Assembly (NCBI GenBank): GCA_043779265.1
Contig: JAYWEM010000084.1
Span: 3,768-67,767, forward strand
DNA: 64,000 nt
From: a bacterium
Lineage (GTDB): Bacteria > Eisenbacteria > RBG-16-71-46
Reading direction: 5' to 3'
Shown: in pieces, positions 1,643-23,465 of the stretch
Position numbering within the stretch: the stretch's first letter is position 1
How the letters are laid out: each line of letters starts with the position of its first letter
Translations under genes and position numbers: made by a program
Notes under the pieces: generated by a model
The model's database searches: none
What the model saw: only the letters and a program-made list of their open reading frames with translations
What the model was told of the DNA's origin: nothing

Positions 1643-1673
1643 CGTTTCGGCGCCGCTGCCAGAGGAGCTCGGG

Positions 1674-2270: not shown

Positions 2271-2274
2271 TCGC

Positions 2275-5451: not shown

Positions 5452-7175
5452 CGCACTGGATTCTCCAAGGTCACCTGTCGCACCCACACGCCGCGGACAT
5501 CGCGTTCGCGGCCGGCGAGCGAGTGGAAGCGGTCGAACGTCCCGGCGCGCTGCGGTGCGGCATCGGAGGGCACGGCGCTCACGCCGCCGACTCCACGCAG
5601 ACGCTCGACCGACGCGGCCGGGATCATGGCGTAGCGAGGCGCGCGGCCGGGCGTGGGCGCGGGCAGGCGCGCCAGCTCGGCCTCCAGCTCCGAGACGGGT
5701 TCGAGGCTGGCGATCACCAGGAAGTGCTCGCGTCCGCCGCGGCTCGTGACGGTCCAGGCACTCACGTCGCCGCCCATGGTGCCGGGGAGCAGGAGCGTGG
5801 TGTCGGCGGGCAGCGGATTCTGCAGCTCGAAGAGCGGCTGCGGGAAGAGCAGATAGGACTCGCCCCGCTCGTCTTCGTTGAGCAAGTAGACATGCGCCGG
5901 ACGAGTGGCGCGGAACTCGAGCGCCAGCTGGTCGCCGGGTCCGACACGATCTCCCGTCGAGAGGCGCGCGCGCTGGCCGTCGTTGCGGCGGACGATCGAG
6001 GCTTCGAGGTCGAACGTCGGCAGGGCAGTGGACACCGAGGTGGCCGCGGGAATCGGCGCCGGGGCCTTGGCGGGCTGTCGCAGCACGAGCCAGCCCGCGA
6101 ACACCATGGCGGCTGCGGCCGCGACGGTGAGCAGCATGCGCACTGGCGAAGGCTCGACGCGAGGTGGCACGAGCGCCATCTCGAGCGCGGTGCCCATCTC
6201 CTCGGCGTTGGCGAAGCGCGCCTCGGGCGAAGCGGCCATCGCGCACTCGATCGTGGCGATGAGCCCGGCGGGGAGGTCGGGGCGTTCCTCGTGCAGCGAG
6301 CGCTTGGCGCCCGCGCTCGATTGCTCGCGCAGTTCTCCCATCGTCCGCGCGGTGAACGGCGGCCTGCCGGTGAGCGCGCACCACAAAGTGACGCCGAGCG
6401 CGTACAGGTCGGAGCGCGTCGTGGCCGATTCGCCCGAGAGCCGCTCCGGTGCCATGAACATGGGTGTGCCCGAGATGCGGAGCGGGTCATCGTCCTGGAG
6501 TGCGCGTCGCTGCCCGAGTCCGAAATCGGTGAGCACGACACGATGCTCCTCGGTGAGCACGACGTTCGCGGGCTTGATGTCGCGGTGCAGCAGGCCGCCG
6601 GCGTGCACGGCCGTGAGTGCGCGCGAGATCGCGACGCCGATGCGCACGACCTCGGCGGCGGGGAGCGGTCCCATGCGCTCGATCCGCTGCGCCAGATCCT
6701 CGCCACGGAGGAACTCCATCCACAGGCCGATCTGGCCCGCCTCCTCGCCGATTCCGTACACGCTCACCACCTCGGGGTGCCGGAGCCGAGCGAGCGCGCG
6801 AGCCTCCTCGAGGAGGGGATGGTCATTCCCCGCGAGTCCGGGGCGCATCAGCTTGAGCGCCACCTCGCGCTCGAGCGTGGGATCCCACGCTCGATACACC
6901 TCGCCGCTCGCGCCCGCGCCGACCTGTTCGAGCAGGAGCAGCGAACCCCAGCGTCGAGTCCCGGCTGCGGCCGCCGCCAAGGGCGACTTCGAGCCCGATG
7001 GGCTCCGTTGCAGCGCGCGATTGAACTCGACGATGCGGGCCACGTCACGAAGCGCATCGATCTGCGAGCGCTCGAGTGTGCTGCCCGGACGTTCGCTCTC
7101 GGCCTGCCAATCGACCGCGAGGCCCTCGGACACCGAGCTGAGAAGCGTGTCGAGCGGATCGTCAGGTGCGCTCAT
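5448..7175 (-). CDS. membrane Ser/Thr protein kinase with a C-terminal extracytoplasmic domain
   Basis: Hanks-type kinase motifs: glycine loop GAGASGEVY, VALK, HRDIKPANVVL and DFG. A transmembrane helix (LLTVAAAAAMVFAGWLVL) is followed by an extracytoplasmic domain of roughly 200 aa. The start overlaps the 3' end of the upstream sigma gene by 14 bp. Confidence 0.85.
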   Translation of the reverse strand: MSAPDDPLDTLLSSVSEGLAVDWQAESERPGSTLERSQIDALRDVARIVEFNRALQRSPSGSKSPLAAAAAGTRRWGSLLLLEQVGAGASGEVYRAWDPTLEREVALKLMRPGLAGNDHPLLEEARALARLRHPEVVSVYGIGEEAGQIGLWMEFLRGEDLAQRIERMGPLPAAEVVRIGVAISRALTAVHAGGLLHRDIKPANVVLTEEHRVVLTDFGLGQRRALQDDDPLRISGTPMFMAPERLSGESATTRSDLYALGVTLWCALTGRPPFTARTMGELREQSSAGAKRSLHEERPDLPAGLIATIECAMAASPEARFANAEEMGTALEMALVPPRVEPSPVRMLLTVAAAAAMVFAGWLVLRQPAKAPAPIPAATSVSTALPTFDLEASIVRRNDGQRARLSTGDRVGPGDQLALEFRATRPAHVYLLNEDERGESYLLFPQPLFELQNPLPADTTLLLPGTMGGDVSAWTVTSRGGREHFLVIASLEPVSELEAELARLPAPTPGRAPRYAMIPAASVERLRGVGGVSAVPSDAAPQRAGTFDRFHSLAGRERDVRGVWVRQVTLENPVR

Positions 7176-7797
7176 GTCCCATCTCCTCGGCGAGGCGCCG
7201 GAGCGCTCGCTTCACGGCCATCCGTACCGCGTCCCGGCTCGACCGCTCGGTCATGGCGGCGATCTCACCGTGGTCGTAGTCCAACTCGATGTGCAGGTGC
7301 AGCAGTTCGCGGTCTTCGGCGCTGAGTGTCTGCATCGCGCGCTCGTAGCGATCGACCACGTCGGACCCGATGGCGTCCTCGAGCGGGGACGGGGAGGGGT
7401 CGTGCAGATCCTCGGGAAGGCCGTCGGGCCCGGGCCGCCGATTCGCGTAGCGCACCTGGTCGCGGATCCGATTGAGCACCGCCTGGCGCACATAGGCCTG
7501 GAACCCGCCCGGCCCGCGCACCTCGATGCGATCGAGTCCCTGCACCGTCCGCATCAGGGTCTCCTGCACGAGGTCGTGTGTGTCGAGCAGTGAGCGGGCG
7601 CGCGACGGCAGCCGCCCGCTCGCCCAGCGCTGGAGGCGGGGGAGGTAGCGTGCCATGAGCGACTCGAGCGCCCGCGCATCGCCGGACTTGGCGCGCTGGA
7701 GCAGGTCGGTCGTGATGAGCAGGTCGTCCTCGGGTGAGCCCGAGGAGGGATCAGCGGGCAACAGGGCACCTCGAAGTGAGTCGGGTTCGAATCCCAC
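7162..7797 (-). CDS. ECF-type RNA polymerase sigma factor
   Basis: Sigma-70 region 2 (DLVQETLMRTVQGLDRI ... YVRQAVLNRIRD) and a region-4 HTH. It is the first gene of the sigma / kinase / CHAT operon. Confidence 0.8.
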   Translation of the reverse strand: MGFEPDSLRGALLPADPSSGSPEDDLLITTDLLQRAKSGDARALESLMARYLPRLQRWASGRLPSRARSLLDTHDLVQETLMRTVQGLDRIEVRGPGGFQAYVRQAVLNRIRDQVRYANRRPGPDGLPEDLHDPSPSPLEDAIGSDVVDRYERAMQTLSAEDRELLHLHIELDYDHGEIAAMTERSSRDAVRMAVKRALRRLAEEMGHERT

Positions 7798-7888
7798 TTC
7801 TGAGCATACCCGTCCGCTCGACCGCGCGTCGTGGGGGGTGTGTCGTCGAGTCGCATACCCTACTTACGCCCGAGGCCGGGCAGGCGAA

Positions 7889-7912
7889 CAGCCTCCCGCT
7901 TGCGGGAGGCCC
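7889..7912 (-). terminator. GC hairpin downstream of the alpha/beta-hydrolase gene and upstream of the ECF sigma promoter region
   Basis: cctcccgc-ttg-cgggagg inverted repeat between the two minus-strand genes. No T tract. Confidence 0.3.
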
Positions 7913-7932
7913 ACCGGGCGGCCCCATCGGAA

Positions 7933-8883
7933 TCACACGGTCCGCGATTTCCTCGCGATGCCCCTGGCCGCCGAGGCCACCTGCTCGATATGCGTGCGGA
8001 CAAGCCAATGGCCGGACTCGGGGAAGGTCTCGAGCGTCAGGCGTCCCGCCCGCGCCAGCGGCGCGGCATTCTCGCGCGACGGCGTGATCCGATCGCCTTC
8101 GCCGACCATGACGTGGGCGACGAGGCTCGCGGCCTTCAGGTCCTCGGTCAGGCGTGCGAGGTCGCCCTCCAGCGCCGCCAGGTTCCCGAGGGACGCCTGG
8201 ATCTGGATGGGCGAGAGAGGGAACGCCCGGGAGGCCGACCAGCCACCCGGCACCGGCGCGGGATGCCAGGCATCAGCACGAGTCCCGGGCGATGCGAACC
8301 GCCCCACCGGGACACCCAGTGCGAGCACGGCCGCATCGGCGAACCGACCGAGCCCTGAGAGCCCGACCCAGATGCGCGTACTGCCCGTGACGCGTCCGAT
8401 CGGGGCCACCGCGAGCACCCCCGCGATGCGATCGGGAGCATCGAGCGCCGTGCGCAGCACCAGAGCACCGCCATAGCTGTGACCGAGCAGATGCGCTCGC
8501 TGCACGCCGAGCGCATCGAGCAGTGAGATCACCGCGCGCGCCTCGCCGCTCAGGTCCAGTCGGCCCGTGATCGAGCGCCGACTGTGGCCGTGCCCGGGCC
8601 GATCCGGGACGATCACGCGGAAGTGGCGGGCGAGTTCGGAGATCAAGGCCTCGGGGAAGTCGGTCGCGTTGCCGTTCGCGCCATGCAGCAGCACGAGCAC
8701 GTCGCCTCGGCCCGCCTCGGTCACGTGCCGTGTGCCATCGACGGTCTCGACCATGCGACCGCGCGGCGGGTAGCGGCGTCGGACCGCGGCGTCATAGGCG
8801 AGCCCGATGGCGGCGAGTGCGCCGTACACCACTCCGGCGATGAGCAGGCCGTTCAAGCGGAACCCGGTTGCGCGACGACCCAC
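7933..8883 (-). CDS. alpha/beta-fold hydrolase
   Basis: HG oxyanion motif (VLLHGANGN) and nucleophile elbow GHSYGG, with the C-terminal catalytic His region. A GC hairpin (7889-7912) lies downstream of its stop. Confidence 0.75.
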   Translation of the reverse strand: MGRRATGFRLNGLLIAGVVYGALAAIGLAYDAAVRRRYPPRGRMVETVDGTRHVTEAGRGDVLVLLHGANGNATDFPEALISELARHFRVIVPDRPGHGHSRRSITGRLDLSGEARAVISLLDALGVQRAHLLGHSYGGALVLRTALDAPDRIAGVLAVAPIGRVTGSTRIWVGLSGLGRFADAAVLALGVPVGRFASPGTRADAWHPAPVPGGWSASRAFPLSPIQIQASLGNLAALEGDLARLTEDLKAASLVAHVMVGEGDRITPSRENAAPLARAGRLTLETFPESGHWLVRTHIEQVASAARGIARKSRTV

Positions 8884-8932
8884 CGGAGAGTTGCCCGGTG
8901 GGTCGCGTGCGATGCCGTCGGCCGAGCGAAGC

Positions 8933-11671
8933 TCAAGCGTCGCGCGGGTCGATCACGTCCGTCTCGATCCCGTACTCGCGGATCGCCTTGGCCACGACCG
9001 CCGCCTTCACCTTGCCGTCCTGCTGCAGCGCATGCAGCGTCGCGACGACCATGTGCTCGGCGTCGATCTCGAAGTGACGGCGCAGCGCCTCGCGCGTGTC
9101 GCTGCGACCGAACCCATCGGTGCCGAGCGCGACGAAACGATTGGGGATCCAGCGCGCCGGCATGTCGTTGACGGACTTCATCCAATCACTGGTCACGATG
9201 ACCGGACCCTCGGCCCCCTCGAGCGCCTGCGTCACGTAGGGCACGCGCGGCTTCTCGGTCGGGTGCAGACGATTCCAGCGCTCCGCACTCAGCGCATCGG
9301 TTCGCAGCAGTGAGTGGCTCGTGACGCTCCACACATCGGCCGCGACGCCCCACTTCTCGCCGAGCATCTCCTGCGCCCGCAGCGCCTGCAGCAGGATCGG
9401 GCCGCTGCCCCAGAGCTGCGCCTTGAGCGCGTGCTTGCCCTCGGCCACGCGGTAGCGATAGAGCCCCTTCAGGATGCCCGCTTCGACACCCTCCGGGCGC
9501 TTGGGCTGCGCGTAGTCCTGATTGTAGAGCGCCAAGTAGTAGAAGATGTCCTCGTTGTCGACGTACATGCGACGAAGACCATCCTGCACGATCGTCGCGA
9601 GCTCGAAGGCGAATGCCGGATCGTACGAGACGCAGTTCGGCACGGCCGAGGAGAGCAGCAGGCTGTGGCCATCCTCGTGCTGCAGGCCCTCGCCATTGAG
9701 CGTCGTGCGACCGGCAGTGGCGCCCAACAGGAAGCCGCGACCGCGCGCATCGCCGAACGCCCAGATCAGATCCATGGTCCGCTGGAAGCCGAACATCGAG
9801 TAGAAGATGTAGAACGGGATCGTCGTCTGGCCGTGGGTCGAGTAGCTCGTGCCCGCGGCGGTGAACGACGCCATCGAGCCCGACTCGGTGATGCCCTCTT
9901 CGAGCAACTGACCGTCGGCCTTCTCGGTGTAGGACAGCACCACCTTGGAGTCGACCGGCTCGTAGCGCTGGCCGAATGGAGCGTAGATCCCGATCTCGCG
10001 GAACAGCACTTCCAGGCCGAACGTGCGTGCCTCGTCGGGGATGATCGGCACGACGCGCTTGCCGTAATCGGCGTCTCGCAGCAGGTTGCGGAGCAGCTTG
10101 CCGAACACCATCGTGGTCGAGACCAACTGCTTCTCGCTGGTGCCGCCGTCGAACTCGGTGAACAGCTTGGCGGGCGCCTCGGGCATGGACTTCGTGCGCA
10201 CCACGCGCTTGGGGATGCTGCCGCCGAGTGCCTTGCGGCGCTCGAGCAGGTAGCGCACCTCGGGGCTGTCCGCACCCGGATGGAAGAACGGCGCGTGGTC
10301 GAGGTCGCGATCGGCGATCGGCAGCTCCAGGCGATCGCGGAACGTGCGCAGTTCCTCGAGGTCCAGCTTCTTCTTCTGGTGCGTCATGTTGCGCGCCTCG
10401 GAGGCGGAGCCGAGCGTCCAGCCCTTGACGGTCTTGGCGAGCACCACCGAGGGGCGGCCCTGTGTCGCAGTGGCCGCCGCGTAGGCGGCGTACACCTTGC
10501 GGTAGTCGTGGCCGCCGCGGCGCAGGTGCTTGATCTGATCGTCGCTCATCGACTCGACCATCTTGACGAGGCTCGGGTCGCGGCCGAACAGGTGCTCTCG
10601 GATGTAGGCGCCGGACTCGACGACGTACTTCTGCCACTCGCCATCGACGGTCTCGTTCATCGCGTCCACCAGGGCGCCGTCGTAGTCGCGCGCCAGCAGT
10701 GTGTCCCACTCGCGCGCCCACACGACCTTGATCACGTTCCAGCCGGCACCGGTGAACAGCGCCTCCATCTCCTGGATGATCTTGCCGTTGCCGCGCACCG
10801 GGCCGTCGAGTCGCTGCAGGTTGCAGTTGATGACGAACGTGAGGTTGTCGAGCCCCTCGCGCGCCGCGACCGTGAGTGCGCCCTGCGCCTCGACCTCGTC
10901 CATCTCGCCGTCGCCGAGGAAGGCCCACACGCGCGAACCCGAGGTGTCGGCGATGCCGCGAGCCGAGAGGTAGCGGTTGTAGCGCGCCTGATAGATGGCG
11001 TTGATGGGGCCGAGTCCCATCGAGACGGTGGGGAACTCCCAGAAGTCCGGCATCAGGCGCGGGTGCGGATAGCTCGAGAGCCCGACCCCGCGCGATTCGC
11101 GGCGGAAGTTGTCGAGTTGCGCCTCGGTCAGGCGCCCCTCGAGGAACGCGCGTGAATAGATGCCGGGGGCGGCATGGCCCTGGAAGAAGATCTGGTCGCC
11201 CGAGCTGCCATCGTCCTTGCCACGGAAGAAGTGGTTGAAGCCCACCTCATAGAGGCTGGCAGCCGACGCATAGGTGGAGAGGTGTCCGCCGAGCCCCGCG
11301 TCGCGATGATTGGCACGGATCACCATGACCGCCGCGTTCCAGCGGATGATGCGGCGGATGCGGAGCTCCATCGCCTCGTCGCCCGGGAACTCCGGCTCCT
11401 GCTCGGGCGAGATGGTGTTGATGTAGCGCGACTGCACCAGCCCCGGCAGCCCGACCTGCAACTGACGGGCGCGCTTGAGCACGCGGCGCAGCAGCCAGTC
11501 GGCGCGCTCGGGTCCCTGCGACTCGACCACGCCGTCCAGCGCGTCCAGCCACTCCTGCGTTTCGGTCTCATCGCCGTCCGGGAGGTGACGCTTGAACCCC
11601 GCGAGCAGGTTCAGGTGATAGCGCTCGGTCTCTCGCCGATCGCTCATGGGAGGCGGGTCCTTGAGGCTCAT
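8933..11671 (-). CDS. aceE: pyruvate dehydrogenase E1 component (homodimeric type)
   Basis: Strong E1 signature (HLSTYASAASLYEVGFNHFF ... GHAAPGIYSRAFLEGRL). I place the start at MSLKDPPPMSDRRETERYH, preceded by AAGGA. The longer ORF running to 12133 is low-complexity and not E1-like. Confidence 0.85.
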   Translation of the reverse strand: MSLKDPPPMSDRRETERYHLNLLAGFKRHLPDGDETETQEWLDALDGVVESQGPERADWLLRRVLKRARQLQVGLPGLVQSRYINTISPEQEPEFPGDEAMELRIRRIIRWNAAVMVIRANHRDAGLGGHLSTYASAASLYEVGFNHFFRGKDDGSSGDQIFFQGHAAPGIYSRAFLEGRLTEAQLDNFRRESRGVGLSSYPHPRLMPDFWEFPTVSMGLGPINAIYQARYNRYLSARGIADTSGSRVWAFLGDGEMDEVEAQGALTVAAREGLDNLTFVINCNLQRLDGPVRGNGKIIQEMEALFTGAGWNVIKVVWAREWDTLLARDYDGALVDAMNETVDGEWQKYVVESGAYIREHLFGRDPSLVKMVESMSDDQIKHLRRGGHDYRKVYAAYAAATATQGRPSVVLAKTVKGWTLGSASEARNMTHQKKKLDLEELRTFRDRLELPIADRDLDHAPFFHPGADSPEVRYLLERRKALGGSIPKRVVRTKSMPEAPAKLFTEFDGGTSEKQLVSTTMVFGKLLRNLLRDADYGKRVVPIIPDEARTFGLEVLFREIGIYAPFGQRYEPVDSKVVLSYTEKADGQLLEEGITESGSMASFTAAGTSYSTHGQTTIPFYIFYSMFGFQRTMDLIWAFGDARGRGFLLGATAGRTTLNGEGLQHEDGHSLLLSSAVPNCVSYDPAFAFELATIVQDGLRRMYVDNEDIFYYLALYNQDYAQPKRPEGVEAGILKGLYRYRVAEGKHALKAQLWGSGPILLQALRAQEMLGEKWGVAADVWSVTSHSLLRTDALSAERWNRLHPTEKPRVPYVTQALEGAEGPVIVTSDWMKSVNDMPARWIPNRFVALGTDGFGRSDTREALRRHFEIDAEHMVVATLHALQQDGKVKAAVVAKAIREYGIETDVIDPRDA

Positions 11672-11860
11672 TTCGTGGGTGTCCTTTCGAAACGGCCGAA
11701 GTCGCGGCCGGAGCTGCGGGCGAAGCCGCCGCGGGAGGTCGCGCGGCTTGTGCCCGGGCGGGTGCAAGCGGGCCTGATGGCGGTTCCCTGATCGTCCGGC
11801 AGGATAGCGCCCGCGCGAGAGCGGGGCCAAACGCCCGGGGCCCCTTCTGGCCGCATCCGT

Positions 11861-12032
11861 CGCGATTGCTTTGACCTGCGCGTCTCGTCGTGGTGGCCTG
11901 TCGTCTCCGTCGACCCCCTTGCTGCTCCCCGGAGGCCCCGATGCCCGTCTCTTCGCCCGCACACACCGTCGTCCACCCGGCCCGCAAGGGTCCTCGCCCG
12001 ATGGCCGCTGGGCGCTCGTGGCGGTTGGTGAG
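11861..12032 (+). repeat. degenerate direct-repeat copy of the S9 peptidase promoter and 5' coding end (compare 14098-14310)
   Basis: The core is about 87% identical to the start of the peptidase gene (ATGCCCGTCTC(T/A)TCGCCCGCACACACCGTC...CGCAAGGG) and carries a 54-bp internal deletion. It encodes the remnant MPVSSPAHTVVHPARKGPRPMAAGRSWRLVSSR*. Confidence 0.7.
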
Positions 12033-12138
12033 CTCGCGATGAACGGCGAAGAGCGCACTGGGCGCGGGCTCGGCCGGATCCGACACTGGCTCCTCGCTCT
12101 CCGGCGAGCTGGTCGGCCGATCGCGCTGCTCATCCTCG

Positions 12139-14058
12139 GTGTGTTCGGCGCTCAGTTCGCTCAGGCGCAGTCCGTGGCTCCTTTCGAACGAGTGTGGGGG
12201 GGGCGATACGGGCCTGCGCGTGTTCAGCGCGTACTCCGTGGCGAGCCATGGGATCGTGGGCGACGGACAGGGCGGAGCCTATGTGGCCGCGAGCCTCTAT
12301 GAGCCCAGCCTCGCGGATTCGCCCTTCGTCACGCGGATCCTTCGCGTCGATGCCCAGGGAAACCCGCATAGCGGTTGGCCTGCGGGAGGACTCGTGCTCC
12401 ACCGGAACGAGTCGTACGCCCCCTGGTTCGACCAACTGATCATCAGGCGCTCCCAGAATGGGAGCCTCTCCGTGAACGGCACGAAGCGCAGACACGGACA
12501 AGATCGGCTGGAGGCGATGGTGGTGGAGGATCCGGCGCCTCGAGTTGCCTGGGCGTCGTTCGATCGGAGACCCACTCAGCGGTTCGATCGCAGATTCGTA
12601 CCCACGCCGAGTGGCGATTGGTGGTCGCTCACCTTCGAATTCGACTCGCTCACCGTGCGACTGCGCAGGCCCAACGGCTCACCCGCACCGGGCTGGCCTG
12701 CGAGTGGTGTCTGCATCGACCGCGCCAGCCCCTCCGGAGTCACTCGCGAAGTCACCAGTCATTGGGAACCGCGAGTACTTCCCGACGGACGGATCGGGAT
12801 CCTCTATGAGAGCCTGGAGTATCCGCCCGGCCCGAGCGTGAGAAAGCTCCATTTGGTGAGGATCAGCCCATCCGGCGCAGCTATCGAACGCGATTCGTTG
12901 CCTCTCACGCCTTGGTTGGGCCGGCTCCGATCATGGACCACCGACGAGGTCGGGAGACCACTGCTCACATGGTCCGATATGAACAATCTGCAGGCTACCG
13001 GTCTCCAATGGGACGGTGCACGGCGTTGGTCCGATGCGCTGTACCCCGACTCGAGCTTCAACCTCTCGCTCGAGGCCTTCGCTGCTCCTGACGGAAACGG
13101 CGGGGCCTACATCGCTCACACCACCGAGGCTCCCTCGGAGTGGCTGTCGCAACTCCGATTGCTCCATCGGCAGGACGACGGCACGCTCGCTGTGGGCATC
13201 TATGCGCTCACTCCGATTCCCGGGACCACTCCCTTCGTAAGCAGTGCCTTCCGAGTCTGGGGGGACGCGCTGGGCCGCGCGGTGCTTTGTCTGCATTGCG
13301 ATGGAGAGAGCTCATTCGGGGCGCGCGGGGCGCCCCGGTTGCTGATCGTGGATTCGGACGGTCAGTTCGCCGGCTCCGATCCGGAGGGCACCAAGGTGTT
13401 CCCTGTGGGCTTCTACAGCTCGTTCCGTCTTGAGTCCGATTCCAATGGGGATGTGTTCGCGTCCTGCCTCGAGTTGGATGCAAGTGGCACGGCGAGGCAT
13501 GTGATCGCGCAGCGCATGCACGCCGACCAACCGGTGGCGACGCTCGCCTCGCGCGTCTCGGGCGGGCGCGTTCGTGGCGGGGTTGAGCTGACGTGGCAAC
13601 TGAGCGGCGACGCCGCGACCGTGGCGCTCGTCGAGCGCAGCGTGGGCGACATGCCGTACGAGGCGTTCGCGTCACTGGCGCCGGATGGCGACGGGCGTGT
13701 ACGCGTGCTCGACCTCGCTGCGCCGAGCGAGGCCCGCTTGCGCTACCGACTGTCGGTCGCGGGGCTGGTGCTCGACATCTGGGAGCTGACAGCGCACAGC
13801 CCGCCGGGGTTGTCGTTGGCACTCGGGCGCACCACTGACGGCGAGGTGGCCGCGCGGATCACGCTCGAGGGCGTTGGCGATGCCCGGCTCGACGTGTTCG
13901 ACGTGGCGGGACGACTCCAGCGCAGCGAGGACCTGAGCGACCGAGGCGCCGGCACACATGAGTTGGCGCTCCCCGGAGCCGGCCCGCCCGGGCTGCGGCT
14001 CGTGCGGCTGCGAGAGGGCGGAGCGCAGCGGGTCGTGCGGTACGCGAGCCTGCGCTGA
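12139..14058 (+). CDS. secreted protein with a T9SS / FlgD-Ig-like C-terminal domain; the N-terminal signal peptide is in another frame (apparent +1 frameshift at a G8 tract)
   Basis: The body ORF (frame 1) ends with LDVFDVAGRLQR...GAGTHELALPGAGPPGLRLVRLREGG..VVRYASL, typical of T9SS/FlgD-like C-terminal domains. A signal peptide ORF in frame 0 (ATG 12039; MNGEERTGRGLGRIRHWLLALRRAGRPIALLILGVFGAQFAQAQS) runs into the G8 run at 12196-12203. Removing one G fuses the two frames. Confidence 0.6.
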   Translation: MCSALSSLRRSPWLLSNECGGGDTGLRVFSAYSVASHGIVGDGQGGAYVAASLYEPSLADSPFVTRILRVDAQGNPHSGWPAGGLVLHRNESYAPWFDQLIIRRSQNGSLSVNGTKRRHGQDRLEAMVVEDPAPRVAWASFDRRPTQRFDRRFVPTPSGDWWSLTFEFDSLTVRLRRPNGSPAPGWPASGVCIDRASPSGVTREVTSHWEPRVLPDGRIGILYESLEYPPGPSVRKLHLVRISPSGAAIERDSLPLTPWLGRLRSWTTDEVGRPLLTWSDMNNLQATGLQWDGARRWSDALYPDSSFNLSLEAFAAPDGNGGAYIAHTTEAPSEWLSQLRLLHRQDDGTLAVGIYALTPIPGTTPFVSSAFRVWGDALGRAVLCLHCDGESSFGARGAPRLLIVDSDGQFAGSDPEGTKVFPVGFYSSFRLESDSNGDVFASCLELDASGTARHVIAQRMHADQPVATLASRVSGGRVRGGVELTWQLSGDAATVALVERSVGDMPYEAFASLAPDGDGRVRVLDLAAPSEARLRYRLSVAGLVLDIWELTAHSPPGLSLALGRTTDGEVAARITLEGVGDARLDVFDVAGRLQRSEDLSDRGAGTHELALPGAGPPGLRLVRLREGGAQRVVRYASLR

Positions 14059-14167
14059 ACGGTCGGCGTGGCGTTCCCCCGCACCCGTCACGAAGCGGTT
14101 GACCGCGGCGCCTGCGCATGGTGGCCTCCGGTGCCACTTCGCGCTCTACAAGCTCCCGGAGGCTCTA

Positions 14168-16174
14168 ATGCCCGTCTCATCGCCCGCACACACCGTCATC
14201 CACCCGGCTCGCAAGGGCCCCCGCCCCATGACCGCCGAGGATCTCTGGGACCTGCCGCGCGTCGGCTCGCCGCAGCCCTCGCCCGATGGTCGCTGGGCGC
14301 TCGTTCCGGTGGCGCACACCGACCTCGAGAAGAACGAGTCGCGCAACACGCTGTTCCTGGTCACGCTCGATGGCACCGCGGAGCCTCGCGCGCTCACCTC
14401 GCCCGAGCTGTCGGCCTCGGGCCCTCGCTGGGCTCCCGATGGGCGCCGCTTCACATTCCTCCGTAAGGACGCCGACTCGCGGATGCAGTTGCATCTGCTG
14501 TCGCTCGATGGCGGCGAGCCGCGCGTCCTGACGACGCTGCCACTCGGCGTCTCCGATGCGCTGTGGCTGCCGGACGGCAAGGGGCTGATCCTCGCGGCGC
14601 AGTTGATCAAGGGGCACCTGACGCCCGAGGCGACGCTCGCCGAGCGCGACCGCCGCGCCAAGGACCCGGTCAAGGCGCACGTCACCGAGGACCGCTTCTA
14701 TCGCTACTGGGACACGTGGATCGACACGGGCGAGGTGATGCATCTGTTCCACCTCGAGCTTGCGAGTGGTGCGGTGCGCGACCTGATCCCGGACTCGGAG
14801 CTGTGGTTCGAGTGGATGGACCCGACGGGGCAGTTCGACATCAGCCCCGATGGCGCCGAGGTGGCGTTCACGGGCACGTGGTTCGATGACGCGCGCTCGC
14901 TCATCGTCACTTCCGTGTTCACCGTGCCGATCACCGGCGGCACGCCGGCACGGCTCGTCCCGCCGCACACCGCCGACGACTTCCGCCCGCGCTATTCTCC
15001 GGACGGCACTCAGATCGTCTACGGACGCACGCTCGACCCGCTGTTCTACGCCGACCCGCCGCAGCTCATGCGCTACGAGCGTGCGAGCCGCCAGCACTTC
15101 ATGATCGTGACCGATTGGGACTTCTCGCCGACCGGTTGGGAGTTCAGCGACGACGGCTCGCTGGTGTTCGTGGCCGAGCAGCATGCGCGCGTGAAGTTGT
15201 TCGCCTGGAACGGCAAGGGCGAGCCGCAGGTGGTGGTCGGCGAGGGTGCGGTCAGCGGGATGTCGCCGGTCCGAGGCGGTCGGCTCGTCTACGCGCATCA
15301 GACGAACGCCTCGCCCACCGAGATCGAGGTGTGCGCCAAGGACGGCTCGAAGCGCCAGCGCATCACCCACTTCACCGACGCGGTCGTCGCGCGCTACGGG
15401 ACCGGCGAGGTGCGCGAGATGCTGTTCGAGGGCGCCGACGGCGAGACCGTTCAGATGCTCGTCGTGCTTCCTCCGGGCGCGGACGGCAGCCAGCCGCTGC
15501 CGCTGGTGCACATGATCCACGGCGGCCCGCACGGCATCTTCGGCGACCAGTGGCATGCGAGATGGAACCCGCATCTGTTCGCGGCGCCCGGTTACGTGGC
15601 GGCGATGGTCAACTTCCAGGGCTCGACGTCGTGGGGGAAGGACTTCGCCAAGCGCATCCAGGGCGAGTGGGCGAGGCGGCCGCACGAGGATGTGATGAAC
15701 GCGACCGACGTGCTGATCGCCGCGGGTATCGCCGATCCCGAGCGCATGGCAGCCACCGGTGGCAGCTACGGTGGCTACATGGCGACCTGGATCGCCGGCC
15801 ACACGGACCGCTTCAAGTGCATCATCTGCCACGCGGGCGTGAACGACCTGACCGGCCAGTACGCGAGCGACGTCACACAGGGGCGTGGCCAAGCGGCGGG
15901 CGGCGAGGCGTGGGACGGTCTCGAAGCGCAGGATCGCTGGTCGCCGATCCGCTATGCGAGCGCCATGAACACGCCGATGCTGGTGATCCACGGCGAGCGC
16001 GACTACCGCGTGCCGGTGGGGCAGGGACTGCTGCTCTACGGGATGCTCAAGGCCAAGGGCGTGCCCGCGAGGCTCGTGTACTTCCCGGACGAGAACCACT
16101 GGATCCTCAAGCCGAAGAACTCGCTCCTGTGGTGCGGCGAAGTGCAGAGCTGGTTGGGTCGCTGGCTCGGCTGA
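14168..16174 (+). CDS. S9 family serine peptidase (prolyl oligopeptidase / acylaminoacyl-peptidase-like) with an N-terminal beta-propeller
   Basis: Catalytic GGSYGGYM nucleophile motif and C-terminal Asp and His regions (IHGERDYRVP, ENHW). An alternative start is MTAEDL at 14228. The ORF-track start at 13958 overlaps the upstream gene and is rejected. Confidence 0.85.
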   Translation: MPVSSPAHTVIHPARKGPRPMTAEDLWDLPRVGSPQPSPDGRWALVPVAHTDLEKNESRNTLFLVTLDGTAEPRALTSPELSASGPRWAPDGRRFTFLRKDADSRMQLHLLSLDGGEPRVLTTLPLGVSDALWLPDGKGLILAAQLIKGHLTPEATLAERDRRAKDPVKAHVTEDRFYRYWDTWIDTGEVMHLFHLELASGAVRDLIPDSELWFEWMDPTGQFDISPDGAEVAFTGTWFDDARSLIVTSVFTVPITGGTPARLVPPHTADDFRPRYSPDGTQIVYGRTLDPLFYADPPQLMRYERASRQHFMIVTDWDFSPTGWEFSDDGSLVFVAEQHARVKLFAWNGKGEPQVVVGEGAVSGMSPVRGGRLVYAHQTNASPTEIEVCAKDGSKRQRITHFTDAVVARYGTGEVREMLFEGADGETVQMLVVLPPGADGSQPLPLVHMIHGGPHGIFGDQWHARWNPHLFAAPGYVAAMVNFQGSTSWGKDFAKRIQGEWARRPHEDVMNATDVLIAAGIADPERMAATGGSYGGYMATWIAGHTDRFKCIICHAGVNDLTGQYASDVTQGRGQAAGGEAWDGLEAQDRWSPIRYASAMNTPMLVIHGERDYRVPVGQGLLLYGMLKAKGVPARLVYFPDENHWILKPKNSLLWCGEVQSWLGRWLG

Positions 16175-16186
16175 GACGTGTGCGCC

Positions 16187-16215
16187 GCCGGGCCCCGCGA
16201 GAGCGGTGGCCCGGC
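16187..16215 (+). terminator. GC-rich hairpin downstream of the S9 peptidase gene (12-bp stem, GAGA loop)
   Basis: gccgggccccgc-gaga-gcggtggcccggc is a perfect inverted repeat, but there is no T tract, which is common in high-GC genomes. Confidence 0.35.
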
Positions 16216-16245
16216 TCGCCGATCCCGTTCTAGAGTGCGGGCACC

Positions 16246-16587
16246 ATGCCCCTGTCCGAGAAGCTGCTGCGCCTGCTCGCGGAGTGTGATGTCGAGACCT
16301 ATCGCGCCTCCGGGCCGGGCGGTCAGCATCGCAACAAGACCGAGTCGGCGGTGCGGTTGCGGCACAGGCCCTCGGGTCTGACCCGCATCGGGACCGAGGA
16401 GCGCTCGCAGCTGCGGAACAAGCAGCGGGCGCTCGAGCGCCTTCATGCCGCGCTCGAAGCCGCCAAGCGCAAGAAGAAGAAGCGCATCGCCACGAAGCCC
16501 ACGCGCTCGTCGCAGCTCGACCGCATGGACAGCAAGACGCGCCGGTCCAAGGTGAAGCGCCTGCGGAGTACGAGCTCCGACGACTGA
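16246..16587 (+). CDS. arfB: alternative ribosome-rescue factor ArfB (peptidyl-tRNA hydrolase, YaeJ family)
   Basis: GGQ motif ([16 protein letters not shown]) and a basic C-terminal tail ([12 protein letters not shown]...RRSKVKRLR). Confidence 0.85.
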
Positions 16588-16713
16588 GCCGGGCCGGGAC
16601 CCGCGCGGGCTGGCCGCCCGGCGCGGCTGGGGCTAGTGTCCCGTCTCGTGCCCGCGCGCGTGGCCACGCCGGAGACACGCCTGCCGACCGCCTGGAACGC
16701 CTCGGAGAACTCG

Positions 16714-17322
16714 ATGAATCCCACGCCCGGACCTGCCGATATCCACGAGAGCCCGAGAAGCGAACCCCGGCTCCCTCCGGGGCAGGTGCTGACCGAGAAG
16801 TGGCCAGTTCTCCACTACGGATCGGTGCCGACGGTGGACCTCGACACCTGGGATCTCACGGTGAACGGCCTCGTCGAGCACGAGCAGAAGTGGAATTGGT
16901 CGCAGTTCGAGCAGCTCCCGCGGGTGCAGGTGAGGTCGGACATCCACTGCGTCACACGGTGGAGTCGCTACGACAACCTGTGGGAAGGCGTTTCGATGCG
17001 TGACCTCCTGTCGCGCGTGGCCGTGAAGCCGGAGTGCCGGTTCGCGATCATCCACGCCGAGCAGGGGTTCACCACCAATCTCCCGATCGCGGAGCTCCTG
17101 CACGATGACGTCCTGCTCGCCGACCAGCACAGTGGCCAGCCGCTCACGCCCGAGCACGGGTGGCCGCTTCGGCTCGTCGTGCCCAAGCGCTACTTCTGGA
17201 AGAGCGCCAAGTGGGTGCGCCGGATCGAACTGGTGGGAGCCGATGTCCCCGGATTCTGGGAGCGCAATGGCTATCACAACGACGCCGATCCCTGGAGCGA
17301 GGAACGTTTCTCCGACTGGTGA
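16714..17322 (+). CDS. molybdopterin-dependent oxidoreductase (sulfite-oxidase-like Moco-binding domain)
   Basis: Resembles the sulfite-oxidase-type Moco-binding oxidoreductase fold (...HCVTRWS...WEGV...HGWPLRLVVPKRYFWKSAKWVRRIEL). The start is uncertain: GTG at 16636 or ATG at 16714. Confidence 0.65.
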   Translation: MNPTPGPADIHESPRSEPRLPPGQVLTEKWPVLHYGSVPTVDLDTWDLTVNGLVEHEQKWNWSQFEQLPRVQVRSDIHCVTRWSRYDNLWEGVSMRDLLSRVAVKPECRFAIIHAEQGFTTNLPIAELLHDDVLLADQHSGQPLTPEHGWPLRLVVPKRYFWKSAKWVRRIELVGADVPGFWERNGYHNDADPWSEERFSDW

Positions 17323-17340
17323 CCCGGCCGAGGAGGGGCG

Positions 17341-18735
17341 ATGAACGACGACGCTCGCGTCGCCCAGGCTCGCCGCTGGCTCGAAGAGCAGTTGGTCGGG
17401 CTCGCCGGCCTCCGCAACGCGCAGTCGCGCGATCCGGCCTTCAAGCACTGGCGCCAGAACACGCTCACCGTGCTCCAGCGCATCTGGCCGGATGATGCTG
17501 GCCACTCCGAGAACTTCCGGCGCATCCCGTTTTCGATGCCCGGCAACAAGACGACGCCGAAGGCGATTCGCGAGTGGTATTCGCGCGGCTGCACGGACGC
17601 GGCCAAGGTGCTGCGCATGCTGCTCGAGGAAGTCGACACCGTCGGCGTTCCCGATCCCAGCAAGGATCGTTCGCGCGAGATCGAGAATGAAGTCGTGGTC
17701 GGCGACTACCCCACGCTCGACCTGGCCTCGGGAGAGGCCGAGTCGGATTCGTCAGGCCCCGAAGTGGCGGACGAGATCATGCTCGACCTGGGTGCGCCGA
17801 GCACTCCGATCGGAGCTGCGACGGCCTCGATGCTCGATCGTGGGCCCGACGAACCGTTGCCTCCAACGCTCAAGGTCGCCGTTCCCAAGGCCGCGCCGCT
17901 CCCAGCTGCGACGAGCGACGAACTTCCGGTCGTGAAGGAGCGCGTGAGCGCTCAGCCGATTCCCAAGCGCCGTGCCTCGGCCAAGCCGAGCCGCAAGGAG
18001 CGCACACGCGGAGCCTCGCGCCAGAAGCTCAAGGACATGCTCGGCCTCGCTCGATTCGAAGCGGTCGAGGGTAGTGCGGCCGAGCCGGCGGCTGCAGCGA
18101 CGCCAGCCACACCGACCGCCGAGGCGGCGGCTCCGACCATGCAAGTCGGGAACGTCGAGGCCGCACCGCCCAAGCGCCGCTCCGGCTCGATCGTCGACCT
18201 GAACTCGATGATCGCCGCGGAGTTCCGCGATGCTCCGGCGGTCGAGCCGCGCCGAACGGCGGCCAAGTCGGTCGAAGCGCCGGTTCCCGCGAACGAGGAG
18301 GCGCCGGTCGCGGACGAGGCGCCTGCGCCTGCGATCGAGCAGGCTCCAATGGCGAGCACCGAGGACACTGCCGAATCGTCCGAGGATGGCCTCGACCCCG
18401 AGGCGTTCGCCCGTGCAACCGAGGCCTTCCTGCTGACGTCGCCGGTGCTGGGCTCGACCGGTCGGCCGGTGCAGCGTGTCTCGGATGGCACGTCGTTCAT
18501 GGATCCCGACGCCGTCGCCGTGGCGTCGCTGGCGAGCGAGGTCGGGCGGCTATCGGTGCCCGAACCCCAGCGCGCATCGCTTCGCGCTCACCTGATGGGT
18601 CTCGCGCGCCAGCTCGAGACCGGTGAGCTCGAGTGGGCACTGTTGCGTGAGTCGGTGACGCTTTCGATGGAGCATCCGGAGCTGGCGCGGCGACTCATGC
18701 CGATCCTGCTCCCGTGGCTCGACCGCGCCGCCTGA
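17341..18735 (+). CDS. hypothetical protein with an Ala/Pro/Glu-rich low-complexity central region
   Basis: 464-aa ORF with structured-looking N- and C-terminal segments flanking about 250 aa of A/P/E-rich sequence. It lies immediately upstream of clpB. No family is recognised. Confidence 0.5.
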   Translation: MNDDARVAQARRWLEEQLVGLAGLRNAQSRDPAFKHWRQNTLTVLQRIWPDDAGHSENFRRIPFSMPGNKTTPKAIREWYSRGCTDAAKVLRMLLEEVDTVGVPDPSKDRSREIENEVVVGDYPTLDLASGEAESDSSGPEVADEIMLDLGAPSTPIGAATASMLDRGPDEPLPPTLKVAVPKAAPLPAATSDELPVVKERVSAQPIPKRRASAKPSRKERTRGASRQKLKDMLGLARFEAVEGSAAEPAAAATPATPTAEAAAPTMQVGNVEAAPPKRRSGSIVDLNSMIAAEFRDAPAVEPRRTAAKSVEAPVPANEEAPVADEAPAPAIEQAPMASTEDTAESSEDGLDPEAFARATEAFLLTSPVLGSTGRPVQRVSDGTSFMDPDAVAVASLASEVGRLSVPEPQRASLRAHLMGLARQLETGELEWALLRESVTLSMEHPELARRLMPILLPWLDRAA

Positions 18736-18875
18736 GTGGCCGAGCAGACGCGCCCGCCGCGTCCCACATCGCGACGAAGTCGTCATGATCTGACCACGCT
18801 CAGAACTTCGCGTTGCAAGGTGTCACGCATCCGCTGTGCTACCGTCCGCATCGGAATGTGCGGAGGTATCCGGAC

Positions 18876-21485
18876 ATGAACTTCGATCGCTACACCATCA
18901 AGTCACGTGAAGCGGTGGACCGAGCGCAGCGCCTGGCGCGCGAACGCGGTCACCAGCAGCTCGAACCCGAGCACCTGCTGACCTCCCTCCTCGCCGAGAG
19001 CGAAGGGACCGTACTGGCCCTGTTCCAGAAGCTGGGCGCCCCTCGTGCCGACCTCCTGCGTGCCGTCGGCGCCGCGATCGAGCGGCTGCCGCGCGTCAGT
19101 GGCGCCTCGGGGCTCTATATGTCGAATGCGCTGCGCGAGGTGTTCGAGCGCGCGGATGCGCACGCCGAACGGCTCAAGGACGAGTTCATCAGTGTCGAGC
19201 ATCTGCTCGTCGCGCTGGCCGACCCGGCCCATGCGAATGGCGCCCAGCGTGTGCTCGCTCAGTCAGGTGTGACCGCCGAGGCGATCCTCTCGGCACTTCA
19301 GACGGTTCGAGGAGGCCAGCGAGTGACGGACGAGAGTCCCGAGGACAAGTACCAGGCCCTCTCCAAGTACGGTCGCGACCTGACGGCGGCTGCTCGCGCC
19401 GGCAAGCTCGACCCGGTGATCGGGCGTGACGATGAGATCCGCCGCGTGGTCCAGGTATTGGCGCGCCGGACCAAGAACAATCCCGTGCTGATCGGTGATC
19501 CGGGTGTGGGCAAGACCGCGATCGTCGAAGGCTTGGCGCAGCGCATCATCAGTGGTGACGTGCCGGAGTCGCTCAAGGACAAGCGCGTCATGGCACTCGA
19601 TCTGGGAGCGCTGATCGCCGGCTCCAAGTTCCGAGGTGAGTTCGAGGATCGGCTCAAGGCTGTGCTCAAGGAGGTCATCGATGCCGAGAACCGCATCGTC
19701 CTCTTCATCGATGAGCTGCACACGCTCGTTGGCGCTGGTGGCGCCGAAGGGGCTGTCGATGCCAGCAATCTGCTCAAGCCGGCGCTGGCGCGCGGCGAGC
19801 TGCACTGTGTCGGGGCGACGACGCTCGACGAGTATCGCAAATATATCGAGAAGGATGCCGCGCTCGAGCGGCGCTTCCAGCCGGTCGTCGTGGGGGAGCC
19901 CAGCGTCGAAGACGCCATCGCCATCCTGCGCGGGCTCAAGGAGCGCTACGAAGTGCACCACGGCATCCGCATCAAGGACTCGGCGCTGGTCGCGGCGGCG
20001 ACGCTGTCGGACCGCTACATCGCCGACCGCAAGCTGCCGGACAAGGCGATCGATCTGATCGACGAGGCGGCCTCACGGCTGCGCATGGAGATCGACTCGA
20101 TGCCGGTCGAACTCGATGAGATCGCACGTCGCGTGCGGCAACTCGAGATCGAGCGCATCGGGCTCGCCAAGGAGACGGACAAGGCGACGCAGGACCGCCT
20201 CGCTCGCCTGGACGATGAGTTGAAGCGGCTCAAAGCGGACAAGGCCAAACTCGACGAGCATTGGCAGAAGGAACGCACGTCGATCACCCGCATCAGCGAA
20301 CTGAAGGCGCAGCGCGAGACGCTCAAGACCGACGAGGCGCGCGCCGAGCGCGCCGGGGACCTCGAGCGTGTCGCCCGCATCCGGAACAACGACCTGCTCC
20401 TGCTCCAGCGCGAGCTCGAACAGCAGAGCGCGCGTCTCGCCGTGATCCAGACGCAGCAGAAGATGCTCAAGGAGGAGGTCGACGAGGAGGACGTCGCCGA
20501 GGTCGTCGCCAAGTGGACCGGCGTGCCGGTCACGCGACTGCTCGAGAGCGAGGTGCAGAAGCTGCTCCGCATGGAGGAGCGCCTGCACGACCGCGTCGTC
20601 GGTCAGGCCGAGGCCGTGCGCGTCGTCTCGGAGGCTGTGCGCCGGTCGCGCGCGGGTCTGCAGGACGCGAAGCGGCCGATCGGGTCGTTCCTCTTCCTCG
20701 GACCGACCGGGGTCGGCAAGACGGAGTTGGCGCGCGCCCTCGCGGAGTTCCTGTTCGATGACGAGCGCGCGATGATCCGACTCGACATGAGCGAGTACCT
20801 GGAGAAGCACTCGGTGGCGCGGATGATCGGTGCGCCTCCCGGGTACGTCGGCTACGAGGAGGGCGGCGCGCTCACCGAGTCGGTGAGGCGCAAGCCGTAC
20901 TCCGTCGTGCTCCTCGATGAGGTCGAGAAGGCGCATGTCGAGGTGCTGAATGTGTTGCTGCAGTTGCTCGACGATGGTCGGTTGACCGACGGGCAGGGGC
21001 GCACCGTGGATTTCCGCAACACCCTCGTCATCATGACGTCGAATCTCGGTTCGGACGCCATCCTCGAACTGGTGGAGCGCGATCGAGCCGAGATGGAAGC
21101 CCTGGTGCAGCGTGCGCTGCGCGAGCACTTCCGGCCCGAGTTCCTCAACCGACTCGATGAGATCGTGACGTTCCACCCGCTGAGTCGGGCCGACATCCGC
21201 CGCATCGTCGACCTCCAGGTCGAGCACCTCCGCATCCTGCTCGCCGAACGCGAGATCGGGCTGGTGCTCTCGGACGCGGCCAGCGACACGCTGGGCGACG
21301 AGGGCTACGATCCGCAGTTCGGCGCCCGGCCACTCAAGCGAGTCATCCAGCGCCGATTGCAGAACCCGCTCGCGATGAAGCTGCTGGCGGGCGAGTTCAA
21401 GGCGGGCGAGGTCGTCGAAGTGGGGATCGCGGATGGTGGCTACACCTTCCGCGTCGCCCGACCTGAGCCTGCGGGCGTCTCATGA
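18876..21485 (+). CDS. clpB: ATP-dependent chaperone ClpB
   Basis: Clp N-domain ([18 protein letters not shown]), two AAA+ modules ([10 protein letters not shown]; [11 protein letters not shown]) and the coiled-coil M-domain. GGAGG lies 9 nt upstream of the ATG at 18876. Confidence 0.9.
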
Positions 21486-21546
21486 TCGAGGGGGCTGTGT
21501 GAGTCAGAGGGGCGGAGTCGATGCACGCAGCAAGCTGGGCCGTGCC

Positions 21547-21744
21547 ATGTTCTCGCTGGTGGATGCCTCGCGGAAGCTCTCGGTCGACACGCGCACGCGG
21601 GTGGTCCGCGTGCGCAATGCCATCGAAGCCAATCCCGACGACGCGCTCACCCGGTTCTCGGTGCGAAGCGATCTCGACGTGCTGGGACGCGATCCCAAGC
21701 TGAATTCGATTGTGCGCATGCTGTGGAAGGCGATGGCGAGCTGA
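21547..21744 (+). CDS. small hypothetical protein (65 aa)
   Basis: Short ORF downstream of clpB (MFSLVDASRKLSVDTRTRVVRVRNAIEANPDDALTRF...). There is no family evidence and it may be non-coding. Confidence 0.25.
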   Translation: MFSLVDASRKLSVDTRTRVVRVRNAIEANPDDALTRFSVRSDLDVLGRDPKLNSIVRMLWKAMAS

Positions 21745-21750
21745 TCGCGA

Positions 21751-22962: not shown

Positions 22963-23465
22963 CGTCTGGAGGCGCTGCCACTGGAGCTTCCGGAGCCGCT
23001 CGGCATCCCAGGTCTGTGTCCGCTCGATGTCACGCAGGACGGCATCGACCGCTTCGCCGCGCCACCTCTGGGCACCGTAGTAAGCGAGTCTGTGGAGGAG
23101 AGGGATCAGGGAGGGCCTCGTGACGGGATCCGAGTGGCGCGGGTCCGGACGTTCCGCGCACGCTGCACACTACATCGGCCGGAGAGAGCGGGCAGTTGAA
23201 GCGCCAGCGCCTTGTTCGAGCGGTCCGTGGGAACGGGTGGCGGCTTGGAGCGAGGTGTTGCAGACTGCAAGCTGATTCCGGGCCCGGCCAGCCATCCGGC
23301 ACGCCGGCCCGTTCCGAGTGAGTGCCCTGGCCGGGCGTGAACCCTTGAAAACACAGCATCGTGAGCATCCGGACGCATATCCGGCTTTTGGCATGTGGAC
23401 TGCATGCCGACAACGGGCTCAGTCGACCCGACAGCTCTGCGCCCATCGACTCCGGGGAAGGTGAC

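Follow-up and report, generated by a model that had tools for sequence, protein, structure and literature searches.

Why should the region in front of a peptidase gene, together with the first codons of the gene itself, occur twice at the same locus, once before the intact peptidase gene and once upstream of a gene for a secreted-type protein? The question is raised by a 64,000-nucleotide stretch of contig JAYWEM010000084.1 (positions 3,768 to 67,767), hereafter called the window, which was assigned to Candidatus Eisenbacteria. Three genes are concerned: aceE, on the minus strand (8933..11671); the gene of an S9 family serine peptidase, on the plus strand (14168..16174); and between them, on the plus strand, what we call the middle gene (12039..14058). 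The middle gene is bracketed by two versions of the peptidase promoter region and 5′ end, namely copy A (11830..12031, plus strand), now a relic, and copy B (14058..14312, plus strand), which consists of the spacer and the intact 5′ end of the functional peptidase gene. In the original prediction this arrangement was taken as an insertion or acquisition in which the middle gene captured a duplicate of the peptidase promoter. We consider it moderately probable that the repeat is the scar of one recombination event, resembling homology-facilitated illegitimate recombination (HFIR), between two congeneric Candidatus Eisenbacteria genomes, those of related soil bacteria.

The first point to settle is whether the repeat is genuine. 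A repeat search delimited a core of 81 nt (11928-12008 versus 14155-14235) with 88% identity at an offset of 2227, the offset of the direct repeat as a whole being 2227-2228 bp. When all of copy A was aligned locally with copy B, the score was 73, as against 12.9 ± 2.1 for dinucleotide shuffles (z = 29; 0/500 shuffles reached 73), so that the predicted direct repeat is real. It takes in, as had been stated, the peptidase start codon and codons 1-20, and also the Shine-Dalgarno sequence GGAGG; at the protein level copy A reads MPVSSPAHTVVHPARKGPRP and copy B ...VIHPARKGPRP. The limits first proposed (11861-12032 and 14098-14310) do enclose repeated DNA, but they are too narrow on the left: the repeat runs from ∼11830 to 12031 in copy A and from ∼14058 to 14312 in copy B, its left edge at ∼11830 matching 14058, the first base past the stop codon of the middle gene. 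Ahead of the Shine-Dalgarno sequence the similarity is weak, yet it is significant and in register, both with copy B (z = 6.1) and with the corresponding spacer of a relative, L083 (z = 7.0).

The elements of the two copies can be matched one by one. Copy A has TTGACC at 11871-11876, TGGTGGCCT at 11891-11899, GGAGG at 11931-11935 and ATG at 11941; copy B has them at 14099-14104, 14119-14127, 14158-14162 and 14168, respectively. The coding part of copy A comprises peptidase codons 1 to ∼18, then a deletion at ∼11993-12005, and then ∼30 nt equivalent to peptidase nt 118-145. A second block of similarity (11978-12025 versus 14263-14310; 81% identity) has an offset of 2285, which makes the deletion 58 bp long and not 54 bp as originally given; it sits between CCCGCCCCATGACCGC and CCTCGCCCGATGGTCGC, which form an imperfect repeat within the 5′ end of the peptidase gene. 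Since 58 bp are missing, the reading frame of copy A is shifted, and what remains is a relic open reading frame (ORF) of 33 codons (MPVSSPAHTVVHPARKGPRPMAAGRSWRLVSSR followed by the stop; 11941..12042, plus strand), whose TGA at 12040-12042 overlaps the middle gene ATG at 12039 as ATGA. The similarity to the peptidase drops abruptly at 12031/12032, 7 nt before that ATG, as seen when 12000-12045 of copy A is aligned with 14285-14330 of copy B; this position (12031..12032) is the presumed illegitimate junction, and the region around it has no similarity to the native leader of the middle gene in L083. The longest exact word common to copies A and B is only 18 nt long, there is no shared k-mer or homology at the junction and the same sequence is found in two further assemblies, which together exclude an assembly chimera.

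If the repeat is real, which of its copies lies where the peptidase promoter used to be? The closest relatives, L165-L168, came from a protein collection, and a scan of Joint Genome Institute (JGI) metagenomes yielded none closer than 65%. In all four, aceE and the peptidase gene are adjacent (peptidase identity 82% for L165, 81% for L166 and 75% for L167 and L168), and they are adjacent and divergent in L004, L005, L006, L088, L090 and L094 as well. The suggestion that aceE and the peptidase were originally neighbours transcribed divergently is thus borne out in 10 relatives, including the four closest. In relatives without the middle gene, the distance from the aceE ATG to the peptidase ATG is 268-286 nt; in the window, the distance from the aceE ATG to the ATG of copy A is 269 nt, and the segment 11672-12000 aligns end to end with the intergenic regions of these relatives. 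Its aceE-proximal part, the aceE leader and promoter-proximal region (11672..11829), is collinear with L083 and L165-L168 and common to all genus-level relatives. It is therefore copy A, and not copy B, that occupies the ancestral position, which is hard to reconcile with a promoter captured by the middle gene. What stands of the proposed acquisition is that a rearrangement joined the middle gene to the peptidase 5′ region, with the repeat as its by-product; what does not stand is the view of copy A as a captured duplicate.

The wider neighbourhood (window 4169-23165, compared through the annotation of L081, L167 and L168) shows synteny with L167 and L168; the one exception is the middle gene, present in the window alone. 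The genes concerned encode a CHAT/TPR protein, a Ser/Thr kinase, an extracytoplasmic function (ECF) sigma factor, an α/β hydrolase, aceE, the peptidase, an RF-1-domain (ArfB-like) protein, a molybdopterin oxidoreductase and ClpB.

Sequence conservation also bears on the nature of copy A. When seven peptidase upstream regions are aligned, mismatches are found at 15/69 conserved columns in copy A, at 12/74 in copy B and at 8-23 of 71-78 in the orthologues; TTGACC and TGGTGGCCT are retained in copy A. The description of this copy as degenerate does not hold, then, for its promoter part, which keeps the conserved columns as the orthologues do. Moreover, the divergence between A and B is distributed as it is between orthologues: upstream they are 0.57 identical and over the first 63 coding nt 0.90, and the corresponding values are 0.67 and 0.90 for L083-L165 and 0.60 and 0.92 for L167-L168. 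In the spacer, copy A is 0.57 identical to B and 0.58-0.62 identical to the orthologues; B and L083 share 0.82, and all the other pairs 51-71%. Informative sites in the spacer support the grouping of B with L083 in 10 cases and that of A with B in 2. As to codons 1-20, 5/6 differences between A and B are synonymous and the sixth is a V/I exchange (P ∼0.01 if neutral), and the changes that can be polarised to the A branch are 3/3 synonymous (P ∼0.03 under neutrality). The two copies appear, in short, to differ like orthologues of two species, with purifying selection acting on both, and copy A is best read as the original allele of one genome. Two other interpretations of these figures were considered and abandoned. 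Copy A could have been a mosaic of the native L083 leader and copy B, but the L083 leader aligns with copy A at z = 2.1 only, a value reached by 34/500 shuffles. The excess of spacer changes on the A branch (35 versus 5) could have been due to decay, but A is no more divergent than five orthologous promoters, the outlier being the B-L083 similarity.

These observations have to be confronted with a segmental duplication in situ, the 'promoter capture' of the original prediction, in a single genome that already had the middle gene. It could have come about by template switching, or by a 2.2-kb tandem duplication with later deletion of the first gene copy, provided that gene conversion or selection on the leader ORF subsequently kept the coding part similar while the promoter part diverged. 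Within codons 1-20, A and B are indeed each other's closest sequences (0.90 versus 0.79-0.83), the two edges of the repeat fall at the ends of the middle gene, which is what a tandem array of 1.1 units would give, and L083 and another relative, L084, carry the middle gene without copy A, which would make copy A a derivative within gene-carrying lineages. However, codons 1-20 are the only part in which the copies behave as duplicates, since in the spacer every orthologue is at least as similar to A as B is. The changes on the A branch are grossly uneven, 35/101 in the spacer as opposed to 3/60 in the coding part. That A is not closest to B throughout, and that the divergence is so uneven, makes for a poor fit to an inert copy of B made in situ. 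In addition, copy A keeps conserved columns like a functional orthologue, the 269-nt ancestral spacing and the collinearity with relatives would have to be recreated by chance, and extra assumptions (conversion, accelerated promoter evolution) are needed. A duplication within one genome therefore seems to us unlikely.

Where, then, did the middle gene come from? True orthologues of it were found in L083 (59-60% identity) and L084 (41%) only. The order in L083 is aceE, middle gene, peptidase, with a 110-bp spacer 82% identical to that of copy B; copy A is absent, and the 158-nt leader of L083 is related neither to copy A nor to the L083 spacer. The junction between the middle gene stop and the spacer, TGA followed by ACGG (TGAACGG), is common to the window, L083 and L084. 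A relative with the same gene order and without the repeat had been named beforehand as a finding that would speak against an acquisition. L083 fits that description, but what it identifies is the layout of the partner that carried the middle gene, and an acquisition is not thereby refuted.

From this arrangement we infer the recombination mechanism and the direction of transfer, which would be as follows. In an earlier event, a block made of a leader and the middle gene would have been inserted between the -35-like GGCCAA of aceE and the peptidase promoter, giving the right-hand junction that the window has in common with L083 and L084. The window differs from them only at the left, where the uninterrupted ancestral intergenic region and ∼48 peptidase codons abut the middle gene. 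In the later event, one genome would have had the L083 layout (aceE, its own leader, the β-propeller gene, the 110-bp spacer, the peptidase) and the other the ancestral adjacency of aceE and peptidase. The genome that lacked the middle gene would have received a piece of DNA that began 7 nt ahead of the middle gene ATG, included the spacer and reached into the peptidase gene; the right end of this piece would have been anchored by homologous recombination inside the peptidase gene, and its left end joined illegitimately inside the resident peptidase gene, near codon 48. Alternatively, a circularised fragment may have integrated by a single crossover, with the same product. Copy A, with the promoter, Shine-Dalgarno sequence and first codons of the resident peptidase gene, would have stayed in place and would now stand before the incoming gene, and the functional peptidase gene would now be served by the incoming promoter, copy B. 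A later slippage deletion of 58 bp between the internal imperfect repeats would have put the relic ORF in the frame that ends in ATGA.

HFIR is known from natural transformation in Streptococcus pneumoniae, Acinetobacter baylyi and Pseudomonas stutzeri and from conjugation in E. coli (PMC3240628 and references therein). The DNA is joined by homology at one end and illegitimately, with 3-10 bp of microhomology, at the other, and incoming linear DNA may circularise and integrate by a single crossover (PMC3240628). The present locus is alike in that one end would be joined through homology in a conserved gene and the other at a non-homologous site, that no mobile-element genes are needed, and that a foreign segment lies beside resident DNA with an insertion-deletion at the illegitimate junction. 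It is unlike those cases in two respects: here the process is deduced from comparative genomics in an uncultured phylum rather than observed, and the illegitimate junction lies inside the homologous gene itself, which produces a partial duplication instead of a simple insertion-deletion.

That diverged relatives do recombine at this locus follows from the mosaic structure of the peptidase gene among genus-level relatives (chi-square P = 0.01 for window 14168-16171 versus L083, L165 and L166). The window is grouped with L166 by 14 sites (versus 1 and 3) at nt 400-600, and with L083 by 12 sites (versus 2 and 5) at nt 800-1000. No breakpoint in this mosaic can be assigned to the event that concerns the middle gene.

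The transfer could also have gone the other way. A fragment from a congener, with aceE, the intergenic region and the first ∼200 nt of the peptidase gene, would then have been imported into a genome that had the middle gene; it would have been anchored in aceE or its leader, with its far end 7 nt before the middle gene ATG, and would have replaced the leader of ∼158 nt. Copy A would be the foreign allele and copy B the resident one. All the evidence of allelic divergence fits this scheme equally well, the exchange involved (∼260 nt inserted, ∼150 nt deleted) is of the kind usual for HFIR, in which inserted and deleted stretches are of comparable length (PMC3240628), and the 82% identity of the B and L083 spacers becomes orthology in the same context, with the stop/spacer junction explained by vertical descent. 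But the 5′ part of aceE has no tract of unusual affinity, neither the peptidase nor the aceE comparison makes sisters of the window and L083, so that a vertically inherited middle gene would need several losses in L165-L168, and an identity of 82% is unexpectedly high for plain orthology when other orthologous upstream regions are 51-71% identical. The search of aceE for an imported or donor tract, its 5′ part included, found none, though it is a weak test. All in all, we hold this reverse direction to be rather unlikely. The import of the middle gene together with copy B into a genome without it is slightly favoured, given the patchy presence of the gene in a star-like genus, the fact that the window and L083 are not sisters, and the B-L083 spacer similarity, which is above that of any orthologous pair.

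Several points nevertheless weigh against the scar of an incoming middle gene as we have described it. The mirror-image event yields the same product and fits typical HFIR sizes. The homologous crossover point and the microhomology at the junction are postulated, the parents not being among the genomes compared. The middle gene is 60% identical to that of L083, whereas the adjacent spacer is 82% identical, from which it follows that the middle-gene module either was not imported recently from a donor of the L083 type, or has a mosaic structure or a fast evolution of its own. The synonymous-site argument draws on 6 differences, the excess of informative sites that unite B with L083 could partly be due to long-branch attraction between A and L084, and the three assemblies that agree on the sequence could come from related samples.

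The slot between aceE and the peptidase gene is not occupied in the same way throughout the relatives. L001 (1272-5583) and L002 (810-2764) have an NMO-like gene of 490 aa, with a Ser/Thr kinase in addition in L001; L087 (1229-2995) has an unrelated 1.8-kb insert with a secreted-looking ORF; and in L003 (937-2886) a distant paralogue of the middle gene lies 24 nt before the peptidase ATG. Wherever the aceE promoter elements were traceable, namely in L001, L002, L087, L083 and the window, the cargo is on the far side of the conserved -35-like element of aceE. In L083, the block of leader and middle gene (1038-3161) is flanked by AGCG and AACG, and the TGA of the gene straddles the right-hand junction, so that there is essentially no 3′ flank.

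Such variable cargo, and the short sequences that flank the L083 block, are what might be expected of a mobile element or of insertion by a site-specific recombinase, the repeat being a target-site duplication or a pair of attachment sites. Yet the repeat, with its ∼200-250 bp at 57-90% identity, resembles neither of these. In agreement with the original prediction, no transposase or integrase was matched by Pfam among the genes called from about -8 kb to +9 kb around the locus; there are no flanking or terminal inverted repeats, the nearest tRNA gene is 18 kb away and distant members of the family lie in unrelated contexts. We consider this explanation very improbable. Two of those distant members (P0005 and P0008, 23-24% identity; L169 1396-7980 and L171 1469-7992) are not beside a peptidase gene but adjoin a protein of ∼1400-1470 aa that is Kelch/glyoxal-oxidase-like and has a FlgD-Ig tail; in L169, a gene of the phage-integrase family is 1.5 kb away. 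Base composition is of no help with regard to a foreign origin, which had been thought testable in this way: GC content is 63-66% in the middle gene as opposed to 65-72% in its flanks, and the dip stays within the range of aceE, so that a foreign origin is not evident and the comparison is uninformative.

What does the middle gene encode, and is it expressed? The start at ATG 12039 and the signal peptide had been correctly recognised, but a frameshift had been overlooked: the frame opened by this ATG stops at 12300-12302, and the one used by the long ORF (12139-14058) is the +1 frame. Reading passes from one to the other at a run of eight G residues, G8 (12196..12203, plus strand), 14 codons past the cleavage site of the signal peptide; were the run G7, the product would be a secreted-type β-propeller protein of 672 aa. 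The orthologues P0001 (from L083, 59-60%) and P0002 (from L084, 41%) align unbroken across the run, which places the frameshift in the DNA. No other homopolymer in the 64 kb exceeds 6 nt, whereas a model of independent and identically distributed bases predicts 15.6 runs of at least 8. The W-G-D motif at which G8 lies has no run in L083 and a G6 in L084. The run is identical in the L081 and L082 assemblies, so that all three assemblies have G8; no polymorphism in the length of the tract was seen among them at the consensus level, at which minority lengths could remain. In L081, one extra C at window position 9893 splits aceE into two called ORFs; this is an indel of the assembly or else a strain difference, which would then affect an essential gene.

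As sequenced, then, the middle gene reads out of frame, and its secreted product would not be made unless the run slipped to G7. We rank a recent slippage frameshift, i.e. a pseudogene, first among the possible readings of G8, phase variation second and a consensus error third. The run is of the sort by which phase variation is recognised, a homopolymer of at least 7-8 nt that sets the frame in the 5′ coding region.

The signal peptide (nt 12039-12170, plus strand), identified by eye, is of the Sec type, with the n-region RRAGRP, the h-region IALLILGVFGA and AQA followed by Q; it aligns with those of the L083 and L084 proteins. The whole protein has no match in Pfam or NCBIfam at curated thresholds. 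Its C-terminal 179 aa, taken alone, match FlgD_ig with E = 0.0016 (18.8 bits, against a cut-off of 27), and Por_Secre_tail (PF18962, TIGR04183) is matched by 4/11 family members (best E = 5e-5). A C-terminal domain of the type IX secretion system (T9SS)/FlgD-Ig type, as had been assigned, is thus below threshold in the protein itself, but the label 'secreted, T9SS-type' is plausible through its homologues. In the AlphaFold model (pLDDT 78), a signal helix and an all-β body (residues 59-493) are followed by two β-sandwich domains at the C-terminus, the last at residues 592-670. A Foldseek search with this fold returned generic β-propeller matches only, and no specific function for the protein.

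The expression of the middle gene brings us back to copy A, which keeps the conserved promoter elements and GGAGG and would by inference be the only candidate promoter for this gene; the middle gene is presumably transcribed from it. The word promoter, for both copies, is suggested by conservation: upstream of the peptidase, TTGACC, a spacer of ∼15 nt and (C/G)(A/G)TGGTGGCCT are kept in 6/7 genus-level sequences, L168 having a variant. A scan for the sigma-70 consensus found no promoter in copy A or copy B, whose conserved elements do not match the sigma-70 -10 consensus. No terminator was detected by scanning between the middle gene and the peptidase gene, and an Rfam search with the repeated leader gave no match at E ≤ 1. 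On the other side of the divergent arrangement, the aceE leader has AGGATA (11801-11806) and GGCCAA (11825-11830), which we read as -10 and -35 elements on the minus strand; the pair is kept even in the distant relatives L001, L002 and L087, and this conservation suggests a promoter role, although the sigma-70 scan found no match to the -10 consensus here either.

Translation of the relic ORF could be coupled to that of the middle gene through the ATGA overlap. We do not take this overlap as a designed coupling: any upstream ORF in that frame (a chance of ∼1 in 3) would end there, and the L083 gene has a similar upstream ORF, unrelated in sequence, so that the overlap is not significant by itself. 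The ORF in L083 has 18 codons (1143-1199) and a GGAGG Shine-Dalgarno sequence, and it ends as ATGA on the middle gene ATG at 1196; the gene start called there at 1220 is probably wrong. One may go further and imagine that the relic has been co-opted as an expression module, with its promoter, its Shine-Dalgarno sequence and its 33-codon leader ORF, on which G8 is superimposed as an ON/OFF slippage switch. This seems to us quite improbable. To our knowledge, neither phase variation nor leader-ORF coupling has been described in the Eisenbacteria phylum. If it were true, the co-opted module would put a secreted β-propeller protein under the transcriptional and translational input of the peptidase, and a two-layer control would have been built from a recombination scar.

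The two flanking genes are less problematic. aceE encodes the pyruvate dehydrogenase E1 component (912 aa; Pfam PDH_E1_M, E = 2e-89, Transketolase_N and Transketolase_C_1), and its start, MSLKDPPP, is kept in relatives. The peptidase (668 aa) is Dpp5-like or acylaminoacyl-peptidase-like; it matches Peptidase_S9 (PF00326, E = 1e-53) and PD40, in other words an S9 catalytic domain with an N-terminal β-propeller, scores 351 bits against the NCBIfam Dpp5 model, under the equivalog cut-off of 900, and has no signal peptide.

How does the locus compare with other known systems? Promoter capture by tandem duplication is reportedly exemplified by the rnk-citT module of the E. coli long-term evolution experiment. 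As there, a gene stands behind the promoter and 5′ end of a neighbour and a short direct repeat is left; but in that case the copies came from one genome, were identical at birth and belonged to a unit duplicated as a whole, whereas here the 5′ region alone is present twice, in copies that differ like alleles of different species. Campbell-type integration by a single crossover likewise gives homology, insert and homology, with direct repeats of one resident and one incoming segment; unlike the present case, it needs a circular intermediate of ∼2.3 kb, for which there is no evidence, and there is no replicon or recombinase at the locus. Displaced 'orphan' gene remnants have been attributed to HFIR in effector-immunity arrays of type VI secretion systems and in Rhs and contact-dependent growth inhibition (CDI) loci (PMC5361080). 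There too, an incoming module that shares a conserved stretch displaces resident sequence, and a relic persists with allele-level divergence. Those orphans, however, are 3′ ends or immunity genes, located downstream and accumulating in arrays, while we have a single 5′ relic, located upstream, which may drive its neighbour and is not part of any toxin-immunity logic.

The phenomenon is thus of an ordinary, known kind, a recombination scar between diverged relatives, and no new mechanism or system is involved. It does provide a legible natural case of gene movement between related genomes without a mobile element, legible because both the state without the middle gene (adjacent aceE and peptidase) and the donor-type state (L083) are available. 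For annotation it carries a caution: a repeated promoter and 5′ end need not mean a duplication, and a 'degenerate copy' should be checked against orthologues. As for Candidatus Eisenbacteria, the locus suggests that recombination between diverged relatives shapes the set of secreted proteins, probably exported by the T9SS.

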